Positions 5,688-43,296 of a stretch of 64,000 nt of DNA are shown here, piece by piece. The notes under the pieces were generated by a model that was given only the letters and a program-made list of their open reading frames with translations, did no database searches and was not told where the DNA came from. Origin of the DNA: Escherichia coli (GTDB taxonomy: Bacteria; Pseudomonadota; Gammaproteobacteria; Enterobacterales; Enterobacteriaceae). Within the stretch, counting starts at the first letter, position 1. Each line of letters opens with the position of its first letter. The DNA lies in assembly GCA_902500205.1 (NCBI GenBank), contig GCA_902500205.1_4868.1; one strand, written 5' to 3'. The position numbers were made by a program, and so were the translations under genes.

Positions 5688-6092
5688 TTAGGAGTTAGGA
5701 CCTGAACAACCACCAGAGCACGCACCTGAGCAGTTTGCGGAGCAGGATTTACCACAACCCCCAGAACAGCTGCCTGTGCACGTGCCGCTACAACCACCAG
5801 AGCACGAAGAGCTACAGCCCGTGCAGCTGCTGCTACAGCCTGATACACAGTTTGCCGAACAAGTCGACCCACAACCGCCCGTAGCAGACCCAGTACATCC
5901 GCCAGAACAACTCGAGCAACTAAAAGAGCATGTGCCACCACAGTCATAGTGCGAACGGCCTTGACCTGCGAACAAGTCGGCGTTATTCGTAGCTTTATTG
6001 CGAATGTAGTTTTGCACATTCGTGGTGTTCTTTAAAGCGTTTGCATCGATCGCGTTTAATCGGTTATTCAGTTCTTTTAATCCAATTGCCAT
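5688..6092 (-). CDS. Cys-rich precursor-like peptide B (134 aa)
   Basis: Leader-like N-terminus MAIGLKELNNRL; junction motif SHYDCGGTCSFSC followed by about 20 Cys in C-x3-C repeats with S/G/T/A/N spacers. Confidence 0.7.
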   Translation of the reverse strand: MAIGLKELNNRLNAIDANALKNTTNVQNYIRNKATNNADLFAGQGRSHYDCGGTCSFSCSSCSGGCTGSATGGCGSTCSANCVSGCSSSCTGCSSSCSGGCSGTCTGSCSGGCGKSCSANCSGACSGGCSGPNS

Positions 6093-6360
6093 TTAATCCC
6101 CCTTAGCGACCTGAACAGCCACCGGAGCAGGCTCCGGAACAACTGGAAGAACATGAGCCACCGCAACCACCTGTGCAGTTACCGGTACAGCTACTACTGC
6201 AACCACCAGAACAACCAGAGCAACCAGAACAGTTACCGCCACACGTCGAAGAACAGCTACCGATACAAGAAGCAGAACAGCTTCCTGAACAGCTCGAACA
6301 GCCATGCGAGCAACCGTTAGAGCACGTCCAAGAACATGTCCCGCCGCAATCTAGCTGTGT
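5700..6360. repeat. Low-complexity codon repeat tracts (Cys/Ser/Gly codons) inside precursor genes B and C
   Basis: Reiterated short codon units create long spurious ORFs on the opposite strand and in other frames (track ORFs 5669..6019, 6093..6305, 6173..6508). Confidence 0.6.
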
Positions 6361-6495
6361 TTTCGTCCAACCCCCAAATCGGTCTGCCGCGTTATGGGCT
6401 TTAGAGGCCACTTGCGCGTCGATACGGGGGCCTGTCGCCATGTTAGCTTCGACTATCTGGACGCGGTTTCTGACGTCTTTAATAGATATCGCCAT
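6103..6495 (-). CDS. Cys-rich precursor-like peptide C (130 aa)
   Basis: Leader-like N-terminus MAISIKDVRNRV; junction motif DCGGTCSWTC followed by about 21 Cys in C-x3-C repeats. Confidence 0.7.
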   Translation of the reverse strand: MAISIKDVRNRVQIVEANMATGPRIDAQVASKAHNAADRFGGWTKTQLDCGGTCSWTCSNGCSHGCSSCSGSCSASCIGSCSSTCGGNCSGCSGCSGGCSSSCTGNCTGGCGGSCSSSCSGACSGGCSGR

Positions 6496-28057: not shown

Positions 28058-28459
28058 ATGACTATCAAGAAGTTCTTACAAACAGTAGTAGTTCTGGCCG
28101 CATGTGGCATCGCAGCAACTTATGCTTTCGATAAGCCAGACGTGACTGAATACGTATCTGCGGATTCCGATTACGGTATTGCACCGAATGAAAAACCGGA
28201 ACTGATGCGTGAGGTCGAACAGTTACAAATCTACAAACTGACGGATGGTAAGAACTGCACAGGGCTGGTTATCGCTGATAAGAAACTGAAAATGTATCAG
28301 CGATTAACCGACATATCGTGCGATCAACCAAAAGTCACTTCGGTCAGCGTATCGCCGTTGGAATTACCAGATCTGGTTGCTGTGAGTTTTTATCACAACG
28401 ATGTGCTCGTTGGTCGCATCACCCTCATTCGTGGAGATATCAAAAATGAAATGCAATAA
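28058..28459 (+). CDS. Small secreted protein or lipoprotein (133 aa)
   Basis: N-terminal signal peptide with possible lipobox (VLAAC); two further Cys. Confidence 0.55.
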   Translation: MTIKKFLQTVVVLAACGIAATYAFDKPDVTEYVSADSDYGIAPNEKPELMREVEQLQIYKLTDGKNCTGLVIADKKLKMYQRLTDISCDQPKVTSVSVSPLELPDLVAVSFYHNDVLVGRITLIRGDIKNEMQ

Positions 28460-37333: not shown

Positions 37334-38056
37334 ATGTTTCGCACCATTTTATTTCTTCTGGTAGCAGTGACCACATTCAACAGCAACGCTTCTTACCAGT
37401 CCACCAGTAACAAACATCAAAAAGAATTTGTCCTTATCCAGGACCAGTTCAATGAGATTAAACCTCTCATCGTCTCTGCATCTCAAAAGCAAGGTGTACA
37501 TGCCGGGATGCTTGCGACCACCATTTACCGTGAATCCCGTTTTAATAAAAACGTGGGTAAGAATAAATCGAGCAGTGCTAGTAGTGTTGTCCAAATGACG
37601 ACAGGCACTAAACGCTCCATGATACGTCTGTATGGGAAACAACTTAACATCCCAAAGAACGCAGACCTTAATAAACCGAAATATGCTGTACAGCTTGCTG
37701 CTGTTTACATGAAACACATCGAGGATCATCTGACAAAACAACTCAAACGCAAGCCGAGCACAGCCGAAATCGCATTAGGCTACCGCTTCGGTGAGAGCGC
37801 TGCTGTTGCGATGATTAAAAAGAAATCATCGGTCGGGAAACGCTGGATGGACAGCTACCGAAAAGACGCAGCATTCTACGGTGCGAAAATGACGCCACCG
37901 AAAGCTGAAACACGTCAGCTTGCTTTTGCGAAGGAAGACCGCGACCAACACGTCGCTGAGCTTCAGAAAATCTGGGATACGCTGTACAGCAAAGTATCAC
38001 CTGCGGCCGGTACATTACTGGCAAATAACACTATCATGAAAGGAGCATTGCTTTGA
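37334..38056 (+). CDS. SLT-domain lytic transglycosylase with N-terminal signal peptide (about 240 aa)
   Basis: Signal-like N-terminus MFRTILFLLVAVTTFNSNA; catalytic-region motif TTIYRESRFN...SSVVQMTTGT matches the family-1 lytic transglycosylase E-S ... Q pattern; start moved from track 37295. Confidence 0.6.
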   Translation: MFRTILFLLVAVTTFNSNASYQSTSNKHQKEFVLIQDQFNEIKPLIVSASQKQGVHAGMLATTIYRESRFNKNVGKNKSSSASSVVQMTTGTKRSMIRLYGKQLNIPKNADLNKPKYAVQLAAVYMKHIEDHLTKQLKRKPSTAEIALGYRFGESAAVAMIKKKSSVGKRWMDSYRKDAAFYGAKMTPPKAETRQLAFAKEDRDQHVAELQKIWDTLYSKVSPAAGTLLANNTIMKGALL

Positions 38057-38697: not shown

Positions 38698-38964
38698 GTG
38701 TTCGTGAAACGTTTAATAAATTTTCTCTACTGGATGGAGAAACGCTATAGCCACAACATTCCGATGATGTACGGTTTGCTATTCTCCACGGTAATGTTGG
38801 TAATCGGTGCGATTGTCGCACATCTGATGGAACTCACGTCCCCATGGGCGCAACTCTTTCTTACCATCTGGATGTTGTTCTCAGGCTACCACGTGCGTGG
38901 TTTCATGACCCGATTCTTTCGCTGGCGTAGTACCTGGCACGTCTTTAATTCCGACCGTAACTAG
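38698..38964 (+). CDS. Small membrane protein (88 aa)
   Basis: Two hydrophobic helices (LLFSTVMLVIGAIVAHL, LFLTIWMLFSGY). Confidence 0.5.
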   Translation: MFVKRLINFLYWMEKRYSHNIPMMYGLLFSTVMLVIGAIVAHLMELTSPWAQLFLTIWMLFSGYHVRGFMTRFFRWRSTWHVFNSDRN

Positions 38965-42229: not shown

Positions 42230-42253
42230 AATTAAAAACTCTCCGAGGTGAGC

Positions 42254-42763
42254 ATGATAGCATCAGTTTTCAAACTGCTTCCATTCTTACAGATGCTGTG
42301 GGAAGCATTTAAACCGGGCGAGGGGGAGAAAGTAACACGAGCCGGGAAGATAGTGACACTAGTGATAGTGGCACTGGTCGCGTTCTCTGCATTTGTCTCA
42401 TATGCCTATATTGTTCAATACCACACACTGGTTAGCGTCCAATCGCGTACTCAGTATCTGGAGATATCCTATAAGGAGCTAAAAGAGAAGTCCGATCATG
42501 GCGAAGTGGAGAACAATAAGCTGTACGATCGTCTCTTCACATGCCTGGGTTCTCGATCGCCATATGATGGTACCAAATCTCCAACAGGGACAGGCACTGG
42601 GGCCGCGGTTCCGCCTGAAGAACTCAAGCCGGTAACACCACAGGCACCGTTAAATCCGTCTAGCCCGCCTGCCAAGAAACACCAGGCAGCTTCTCGCCCA
42701 GTGGGGTCGCAGGCGGCAAACGATTTCCGACAGGAGATTATCAAGACGCTTAATAATCCATGA
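42254..42763 (+). CDS. Membrane-anchored protein, i-spanin-like (about 169 aa), tentative
   Basis: Single N-terminal transmembrane helix (IVTLVIVALVAFSAFVSYAYIV), then a charged helical segment and a Pro-rich tail; immediately upstream of a lipoprotein gene. Confidence 0.4.
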   Translation: MIASVFKLLPFLQMLWEAFKPGEGEKVTRAGKIVTLVIVALVAFSAFVSYAYIVQYHTLVSVQSRTQYLEISYKELKEKSDHGEVENNKLYDRLFTCLGSRSPYDGTKSPTGTGTGAAVPPEELKPVTPQAPLNPSSPPAKKHQAASRPVGSQAANDFRQEIIKTLNNP

Positions 42764-42772
42764 GGAGCATAC

Positions 42773-43252
42773 ATGAAGTTATTTTTGGTGGCGATACTGG
42801 TGCTATTGTTGACAGGATGCCCTGGGGTCATCCGTCACGTAGACCCAGATTACTCCTCAACCGGAGATTGGCCTTTTCGTCCTTTAGAACACCCACCAGT
42901 ATATAACGGTGGGAACAGTCCTGAGGCGAAAAAGCTGGCAGGGAAAATGTTTGTTGCGGATGTGAACGCTTATGCTTATTACGTTTATCTGTACGCTAAG
43001 TCAGTAAACAACTATGCAGAAGCTAAAGGGTGGCACACCCCGATGACCGCACCGCTTTGTGAAGAGTTTATTCGCCCCACTCTTCATGGTATACCCTCCG
43101 GGATATATCTCGACCCTGGTTCTCGTAGCCCTCAAGACATTAGTCGTGATTTGTCACGACAGATTAAGTCTCTCATTCGCAGCTATCGCGAAGACAGAGA
43201 GTCTTTTAATCGTGCCTACGAACGGCACAAAAGTAGTTGCCTTGTGCAATGA
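42773..43252 (+). CDS. Lipoprotein (159 aa), possible o-spanin-like partner
   Basis: Signal peptide with lipobox LLTGC; Pro-containing mature part with several Cys; larger than typical o-spanins. Confidence 0.5.
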   Translation: MKLFLVAILVLLLTGCPGVIRHVDPDYSSTGDWPFRPLEHPPVYNGGNSPEAKKLAGKMFVADVNAYAYYVYLYAKSVNNYAEAKGWHTPMTAPLCEEFIRPTLHGIPSGIYLDPGSRSPQDISRDLSRQIKSLIRSYREDRESFNRAYERHKSSCLVQ

Positions 43253-43257
43253 AAACT

Positions 43258-43296
43258 CCCTCTTACCTTCGGGTAAGAGGGGATTTCCTTTTTTAC
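43258..43296 (+). terminator. Rho-independent terminator
   Basis: Hairpin ccctcttacc-ttcg-ggtaagaggg followed by a T-run. Confidence 0.7.

Follow-up and report, generated by a model that had tools for sequence, protein, structure and literature searches.

What do two adjacent genes of a giant phage do together in the envelope of its host? The genes lie at positions 42254-43252 of a 64,000-nucleotide stretch of Escherichia coli assembly GCA_902500205.1 (contig GCA_902500205.1_4868.1), which as a whole is called the window here. The window is 99.5% identical to Escherichia phage vB_EcoM_EC001 (EC001) and ~98% identical to Salmonella phage SPN3US, and belongs to an SPN3US-like Seoulvirus, a nucleus-forming giant phage. 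The first open reading frame (ORF) is SPN3US gp204 (EC001 MGA_201) and the second is SPN3US gp205 (EC001 MGA_202). Both are labelled 'hypothetical protein' in every record seen; gp204 falls into phrog_8719 and gp205 into phrog_8165, both PHROGs of unknown function, and no Pfam family exists for either. The first-pass annotation had read them as a two-component spanin pair with an unusually large lipoprotein. Our analysis gives roughly even odds that gp204 and gp205 are the two halves of a periplasm-spanning complex that acts as this phage's separated two-component spanin. The proposal is favoured by the sequence features expected of spanins, by the lack of another such pair in the genome and by a precedent in Cronobacter phage CR5, but is weakened by the lack of a match to any validated spanin family and by the spanins that coexist with this pair in relatives.

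Both genes are real and were placed correctly on the + strand by the first-pass annotation, as their sequences, Shine-Dalgarno sites and conservation indicate. The gp204 orthologue, a candidate inner-membrane spanin (i-spanin) of 169 amino acids (aa), occupies 42254-42763, and the gp205 orthologue, a candidate outer-membrane spanin (o-spanin) of 159 aa, occupies 42773-43252. These assignments draw on the ORFs, the PHROG matches and orthology to CR5_183 and CR5_184, respectively. The gp205 ORF starts 9 nt past the gp204 stop, in the same frame. A Shine-Dalgarno core, GAGG (42245-42248, +), stands 5 nt before the ATG at 42254, and its position favours this start over the GTG at 42248, which is unlikely to be used because it lies inside the GAGG, and over the start further downstream that the SPN3US annotation uses. 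In the SPN3US records (NC_027402, JN641803; start 180017), gp204 begins 13 codons too late (window 42254-42292), which cuts off an N-terminal helix conserved in the family; the EC001 start is the one with a Shine-Dalgarno sequence. The gp205 site, AGGAG (42762-42766, +), lies 6 nt before its ATG and overlaps the gp204 stop codon. By tblastn, both proteins occur in 75-79 phage records and are neighbours wherever both were located. The gp205 family comprises 46 clusters at 50% identity in a library of 1.8 billion proteins, and the pair is adjacent in 15/15 IMG/VR loci, in CR5 and in the divergent metagenome loci examined, the two genes being adjacent or overlapping by 4 nt. Since both genes are conserved and adjacent across relatives, chance ORFs can be excluded. 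In several Salmonella phage SPFM records (LR5359xx; e.g. P0007-P0010 and P0096-P0099), both genes are scrambled or frameshifted; the tblastn matches fall apart into 4-8 pieces and segments of the predicted proteins are shuffled, which looks like an assembly artefact rather than biology.

The hydropathy of gp204 shows a single strong transmembrane domain (TMD) at ~33-55 with K20, K26, R29 and K32 on its N side. By sequence this is the one-TMD type II (N-in, C-out) topology that the Young-lab spanin census (Kongari et al. 2018, PMC6139136) looks for in an i-spanin. In the AlphaFold2 (AF2) model, built on a 13-sequence alignment with a mean predicted local distance difference test score (pLDDT) of 65, a helix at 3-19 is followed by a continuous helix at 29-97, whose periplasmic part is 56-97. 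Residues 98-139 are disordered and contain 10 Pro among 42 residues, and two helices close the protein at 140-146 and 153-167. The helix at 3-19 is amphipathic and carries the family-wide motif ..LLPFL.., with P10 invariant in the alignment of the transmembrane (TM) protein family. The only cysteine, Cys97 in FTCLG, ends the periplasmic helix and is missing in several relatives. A simple heptad check gave a weak signal, with 58% hydrophobic a/d positions. The last helix (153-167) is amphipathic and contains FRQEIIKTLN; a C-terminal motif, R..(I/M)(I/V)..(I/L)N, recurs in the TM proteins of gp205-type pairs (SPN3US, CR5, metagenome loci); in phiKZ and FLC6 it is degenerate or missing, and lineages that have the TM protein only do not show it. 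Hydropathy and model together support what had been proposed for this protein, a membrane anchor with a periplasmic helical and Pro-rich domain.

The N-terminus of gp205 reads MKLFLVAILVLLLTG up to the cleavage point before C16, with the lipobox LLTG-C16 and Pro at +2, and Asp at +2 occurs in none of the lipobox-bearing family members seen. This lipobox passes both a PROSITE-like strict rule and a relaxed rule, so that the outer-membrane type of lipoprotein read from the motif LLTGC is borne out, together with the signal that the census asks of an o-spanin. The AF2 model (26 sequences, mean pLDDT 81.8) predicts a disordered tether at 17-49 that holds 6 Pro, a helix at 50-84, a loop and a second helix at 120-154, and the two helices form a hairpin. 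C96 and C156 are invariant across the family and 60 residues apart, C156 being 3 residues from the C-terminus. The spacing, a Cys followed after ~60 aa by a second Cys 2-3 residues before the end, is kept across the 46 clusters, in phiKZ gp156 and in FLC6 gp57. As far as sequence can tell, the periplasmic cysteines, a single one in gp204 and the invariant two in gp205, would suit the disulfide chemistry of spanins. Together the periplasmic parts measure 114 + 144 = 258 aa, and because this falls within the census range of 62-300, the two proteins would be long enough to span the periplasm.

SPN3US-like genomes lie outside the census, in which CR5_183 (168815-169330) and CR5_184 (169340-169786) are listed as the 'separated' i-/o-spanin of CR5, with a combined periplasmic length of 254 (PMC6139136). 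The family hidden Markov models (HMMs) of gp204 and gp205 match CR5_183 and CR5_184 with 106 and 139 bits, and the tblastn matches lie at the census coordinates. Judged by these profiles, CR5_183 and CR5_184 are true orthologues of gp204 and gp205. The CR5 pair resembles ours in gene order, in the 9-10 nt gap and in size (171 + 148 aa), and its neighbours are likewise a tail gene, an exonuclease and RNase H, with CR5_178 as the SLT protein; it differs in that identity to gp204 and gp205 is only ~30-35%. In addition, the census predicts one coiled coil in CR5_183, at 66-99, and gives a Shine-Dalgarno context of ..ccGAGGT.., as in gp204 (PMC6139136). Overall, gp204 and gp205 appear to have the features by which the census recognizes spanins, namely the outer-membrane lipoprotein signal, the type II TM protein, the gene order and the combined length. 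The description of the lipoprotein as unusually large stands against lambda Rz1 but not against the census o-spanin candidates of CR5, EL, OBP and Ea35-70, which have 148-167 aa (PMC6139136). Large o-spanins therefore work in giant phages, given that phiKZ gp141.1 has been validated at 120 aa (Manohar et al. 2026, PMC12894885).

No other protein of this phage looks able to take the part. The whole SPN3US-type genome was rebuilt from EC001 and the window and scanned in six frames from every start codon under both lipobox rules, of which the relaxed one picks up lambda Rz1, phiKZ gp141.1, phiKZ gp156 and the embedded o-spanin of Serratia phage PCH45. Just three annotated genes are among the matches, gp205, a lone lipoprotein of 163 aa and an ORF of 44 aa, and none of the remaining all-frame matches in the genome lies beside or inside a TM-protein gene. 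Because no other lipobox match adjoins a TM gene, the genome holds no second TM/lipoprotein pair and no single-protein u-spanin. Several candidates were rejected individually: ACEC001_0270/0280 has no TMD and a weak h-region; ACEC001_1390/1395, the 44-aa lipobox-like ORF, has no TM partner; the lone 163-aa lipoprotein has neither a partner nor the C-terminal TMD of a u-spanin; and a 45-aa ORF inside gp193 has a poor lipobox and a host gene without a TMD. If the enterobacterial host demands a spanin, gp204 and gp205 would be the only proteins in the genome able to serve. A canonical spanin pair elsewhere had been named as a finding that would speak against the proposal; the six-frame scan gave none in this genome, but such pairs exist in the relatives phiKZ and FLC6.

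The genes that would act with a spanin can also be traced. An SLT-domain endolysin, SPN3US gp198, is encoded at 37334-38056 (+), identified by its domain and by a Sec-type or signal-arrest-release (SAR)-type N-terminus, MFRTILFLLVAVTTFNSNA. It sits 4.2 kb upstream of the pair, in accord with the SLT-type enzyme noticed about 5 kb away at first pass, and would be the functional partner of gp204 and gp205 if the pair is a spanin. Sec- or SAR-type SLT N-termini are also found in CR5_178, FLC6 gp54 and metagenomic relatives, whereas the N-terminal region of phiKZ gp144 has no signal sequence; this points to a different mode of endolysin export in this clade. The order SMC ... SLT ... two inverted tail genes / TM protein / lipoprotein / exonuclease / RNase H forms a conserved block. 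In two divergent metagenomic relatives (loci L024 and L026), nothing but the two inverted tail genes lies between the SLT gene and the pair, and in FLC6 the SLT gene, gp54, lies two genes downstream of its pair.

The phiKZ lysis cassette, established by experiment in 2026, consists of the i-spanin gp141, the o-spanin gp141.1, the holin gp142, the regulator gp143 and the endolysin gp144 (PMC12894885). SPN3US-type phages carry homologues of phiKZ gp139 and gp140. Outside the window, ACEC001_0880 (EC001 87158-87730; locus L031 38158-38730) encodes a holin-like protein of 190 aa, made up of a soluble N-terminal domain of ~105 aa plus two TMDs. The gene begins 2 bp past the RuvC-like homologue of phiKZ gp140 and is syntenic with gp142, a class IIIb holin. 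Since only 2 bp separate the gp140 homologue from the holin-like gene, the slot of gp141/141.1 is empty in this genome.

In the scheme that we favour, gp204 would be anchored N-in/C-out in the inner membrane and would expose to the periplasm a helix of ~42 residues, a Pro-rich linker of ~42 residues and the C-terminal amphipathic helix. gp205 would be exported, would receive its lipid at Cys16 and would end up in the inner leaflet of the outer membrane, from which a disulfide-capable helical hairpin would hang on a tether of ~33 residues. The C-terminal helix of gp204 would then bind the gp205 hairpin, and the complex would be held in the peptidoglycan mesh during late infection. After holin triggering, the exported endolysin gp198 would degrade the wall, and the freed complex would collapse and fuse or disrupt the outer membrane, releasing the virions. 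Complex formation, the disulfides, the timing and the membrane-disrupting activity are steps that we infer.

Homology searches offer little to support this scheme. Against Pfam and PHROGs, gp204 and gp205 gave no spanin match even at E ≤ 1, and Pfam returned sub-threshold noise only (FtsH_ext at 19.8 bits, cutoff 25.5, and Bac_luciferase). The gp205 family HMM matched phiKZ gp141.1 (~10 bits) and Rz1 in the signal peptide only, and neither family HMM matched phiKZ gp141 or Rz. Lipoproteins of the gp141.1 type match phrog_456, 'Rz-like spanin', but gp205 does not. Thus neither protein matches any validated spanin family by sequence or fold, the fold searches being uninformative on this point, and the literature searched contained no experimental evidence for any member of the gp204/gp205 family and no functional mention of SPN3US gp204/gp205 or phiKZ gp156. 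The CR5 precedent is itself a bioinformatic call only: the census lists the pair among 'best candidates', with the flags 'too long?' and, for the i-spanin candidate, 'Too long N-terminus?' (PMC6139136). Together with the orthologous pairs that relatives keep beside validated or canonical spanins, the missing match to a validated family is why spanin function is plausible rather than established.

These relatives, like the further observations set out below, weigh against a spanin and at the same time favour another view, which we consider a possibility to be taken seriously. Here the pair would be a module of the envelope common to the Chimalliviridae, crossing from inner to outer membrane and having a main job other than disrupting the outer membrane. 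It may sense or regulate lysis timing or superinfection from the periplasm and signal through the conserved N-terminal helix of the membrane protein, which lies on the cytoplasmic side; in some lineages the lipoprotein would serve as an accessory outer-membrane anchor; SPN3US-like phages would then have no classical spanin or would use another route.

One such relative is phiKZ. There, gp156.1 and gp156 lie between the tail gene gp157 (the counterpart of SPN3US gp203) and the RNase H gene gp155, syntenic with gp204 and gp205, which we likewise find between a divergent gp203/gp157-type tail gene and RNase H. Pairs of this gp156.1/gp156 type in the Chimalliviridae fall into PHROGs 8719/14813/37076 and 8165/15897, which carry no functional annotation. 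phiKZ gp156.1 is a TM protein of 96 aa that shares the N-terminal helix of gp204, and gp156 is a lipoprotein with the lipobox LISGC. Pairwise BLASTP of gp204 and gp205 against phiKZ gp156.1, gp156, gp141 and gp141.1 returned nothing, but the gp205 family HMM matches gp156 with 38.5 bits (27.5 bits for the Cys-to-Cys segment), gp156 in turn cross-matches the gp205 PHROG at 1.8e-6, and a BFVD fold search with gp205 retrieved lipoproteins of Psa21, Phabio and RP12. This profile-level evidence indicates that gp205 is homologous to phiKZ gp156. A search for related loci with phiKZ gp156 alone gave one near-identical locus only. For the TM proteins, a narrow gp204 HMM left phiKZ gp156.1, gp141 and Rz all undetected; a broader gp204-type alignment compared by hhalign with phiKZ gp156.1, FLC6 gp58 and the proteins of PCH45, KpLz-2_45 and Agricanvirus at the same locus gave a probability of 92.4% and an E-value of 5e-7, a score that TMD content may inflate. 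The match runs from the N-terminal helix through the TMD into the beginning of the coil, and by this profile comparison the TM proteins of the locus are related across the Chimalliviridae sampled.

In architecture, phiKZ gp156 resembles gp205 in its pattern Cys-x59-Cys-x2-end, and gp156.1 resembles gp204 in having the N-terminal helix and the TMD. gp156.1 differs from gp204 in being only 96 aa long, with no Pro-rich linker and no Cys, and gp156 differs from gp205 in lacking the aromatic first helix. The SPN3US clade, whose sole pair is of the gp156 type, has it in the longest form, with 114 + 144 periplasmic residues versus 42 + 117 in phiKZ.

phiKZ carries this pair alongside gp141/141.1, which complement lambda RzamRz1am (PMC12894885), and both types of lipoprotein are conserved among Pseudomonas Chimalliviridae (phiKZ, PhiPA3, 201phi2-1, Phabio, Psa21 and D6). 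One would not expect two redundant spanin systems to survive divergence on that scale. Transposon sequencing (TnSeq) of phiKZ, after trimming, gave 0 insertions in orf156 and orf156.1 and 1 each in orf141 and orf141.1, which suggests that the two pairs are non-redundant; however, its authors warn of polar effects, the RNase H gene gp155 lies downstream of orf156, and the result may be a polar artefact.

Burkholderia phage FLC6 repeats the coexistence. At its RNase H locus both members of the pair are present, as gp58/gp57, and in addition the phage carries gp95/gp94, where gp95 is a TM protein and gp94 a lipoprotein that matches phrog_456, 'Rz-like spanin', followed by gp93, which is holin-like with a large N-terminal domain. 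In the FLC6 record (LC592711 91381-93946; locus L042 41881-44446), gp97-gp93 are annotated as hypothetical and are syntenic with phiKZ gp139-gp142, including the RuvC-like protein. We had considered displacement, in which the pair is eroded only in phages that have gained another spanin system, and rejected it, as FLC6 keeps both: displacement predicted an FLC6 without another system, so the presence of gp95/gp94 and gp93 defeats it in its simple form.

A second group, comprising PCH45, KpLz-2_45, Deimos-Minion, SA002 and Agricanvirus, keeps the TM half alone at this locus. Elsewhere in its genome, PCH45 has a canonical pair of the embedded Rz/Rz1 type: gp54 is a separate, canonical Rz-like gene with a lipoprotein ORF embedded in it, and this 'Rz/spanin' has been reported essential by Tn-seq. 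The embedded ORF (locus L006 25535-25215, - strand) is unannotated, lies out of frame in gp54 and has the lipobox LVGC. gp54 was rejected as the PCH45 orthologue of gp204, which is gp68.

Two features of the proteins themselves point the same way. The most conserved part of gp204 is the N-terminal helix, on the cytoplasmic side, a helix to which the classical i-spanin model assigns no function, and family homology centres on this helix and the TMD. Further, some homologues of gp205 (clusters P0028, P0029 and P0064) have a plain signal peptide without a lipobox Cys and, going by their sequences, would be soluble periplasmic proteins. Homologues without the lipobox Cys occur at loci L017, L018, L020 and L021 (~6004-6459) and at L026 (6001-6393), where the hairpin and both C-terminal Cys are kept.

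The coexistence with other spanins, the TM-only lineages and the conserved N-terminal helix together point, tentatively, to another or an additional ancestral function. The fixed place beside the tail gene gp203/gp157 and RNase H is also unlike the mosaic, fast-evolving spanins of the census (PMC6139136), and the lysis delay of phiKZ at high multiplicity of infection suggests a lysis-inhibition system. Yet PHROG, Pfam and fold searches gave no pointer to a specific other function, nothing else in this genome could supply spanin function, and the full-length periplasmic architecture, the Pro-rich tether and the cysteines suit a spanning complex well. The more specific form of this idea, that the pair, and above all its TM half, is a core envelope-crossing device in nucleus-forming giant phages and does something other than fuse the outer membrane, we regard as doubtful. 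It would, for example, sense superinfection or the state of the envelope in the periplasm and signal through the conserved N-terminal helix to a cytoplasmically regulated holin of class IIIb type, which would make it a sensor for lysis timing or lysis inhibition, and SPN3US-like phages would either lyse without a classical spanin or have re-used the device as a spanin after losing a gp141-type cassette.

A third explanation, in which no complex forms, the lipoprotein acts alone in receptor masking or superinfection exclusion, as T5 Llp and Cor-type lipoproteins do, and the separate TM protein is adjacent through a shared operon only, is very unlikely: the TM protein does occur without the lipoprotein in several lineages and partnerless lipoproteins do occur in this genome, but a gp205-type lipoprotein follows the TM gene directly wherever it was located with its flanks (15 IMG/VR loci, 7 metagenome loci, CR5, phiKZ and FLC6), in many cases with the stop and start codons overlapping, gp205-type pairs have a C-terminal motif of the TM protein in common that TM-only lineages lack, and exclusion genes, being as a rule accessory and variable, would not be conserved throughout a virus family.

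Some other features of the locus and genome deserve mention. Downstream of gp205, a consensus scan alone picked out an intrinsic-terminator-like element (43257-43292, +), in which a hairpin at 43257-43282 with an 11-bp stem, 6 GC pairs and a 4-nt loop is followed by a T run; it precedes the exonuclease and RNase H genes, so that gp204 and gp205 seem to form a transcription unit of their own. An 88-aa protein with two TMDs, encoded two genes past the endolysin (38698-38964, +), matches no PHROG and only sub-threshold DUF4231, and is a possible holin or pinholin. The lone 163-aa lipoprotein (MKRLFIVFAFISLLTG, then the lipobox C) lies on the - strand at ~1-369, cut by the window start (EC001 136417-136908); its gene is opposite in strand to its neighbours, and the product could be a receptor-masking or exclusion lipoprotein. 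A 133-aa ORF at 28058-28459 (+) with the N-terminus MTIKKFLQTVVVLAACGIAATYAF passes the strict lipobox rule but is more like a signal anchor. Between ~369 and ~41000 of the window, the mapping offset to EC001 differs by ~237 bp between the ends, indicating at least one indel.

Against Salmonella and E. coli, SPN3US-like phages are candidate agents for both therapy and biocontrol, yet their lysis system is unannotated. If gp204 and gp205 are a spanin, the lysis set would be complete, comprising the exported SLT endolysin, the holin-like gene at the phiKZ gp142 position and this pair, and a structurally unusual o-spanin built on a helical hairpin would be added to a class known mostly from lambda. 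The family was already catalogued bioinformatically through CR5, while its SPN3US-type members are unannotated. What is new relative to the literature searched is that the family spans the Chimalliviridae sampled, with its TM half conserved throughout, and includes phiKZ gp156.1/gp156 beside the spanins validated in 2026. This raises the question of whether phiKZ has two spanin systems or whether the pair has a different envelope function in nucleus-forming phages.

Compared with known spanins, gp204 and gp205 share more in layout than in sequence. phiKZ gp141/141.1 come from the same virus family and likewise combine a TM protein that has a helical periplasmic domain with a large outer-membrane lipoprotein; they differ from gp204 and gp205 in showing no detectable homology, in their overlapped architecture and in their place in a cassette with holin, regulator and endolysin. 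Like T4 PseT.3/PseT.2 and lambda Rz/Rz1, our pair consists of a type II inner-membrane protein and an outer-membrane lipoprotein encoded by tandem genes, although no sequence similarity links them. The separated architecture is that of PseT.3/PseT.2. In T4, too, the spanin genes are found at a distance from those for holin and endolysin. Lambda Rz1 is a Pro-rich, unstructured protein of 60 aa, in contrast to gp205 with its confidently predicted helical hairpin, and gp204 differs from the T4 and lambda i-spanins in its extra conserved N-terminal helix and in having only one clear coiled-coil segment.

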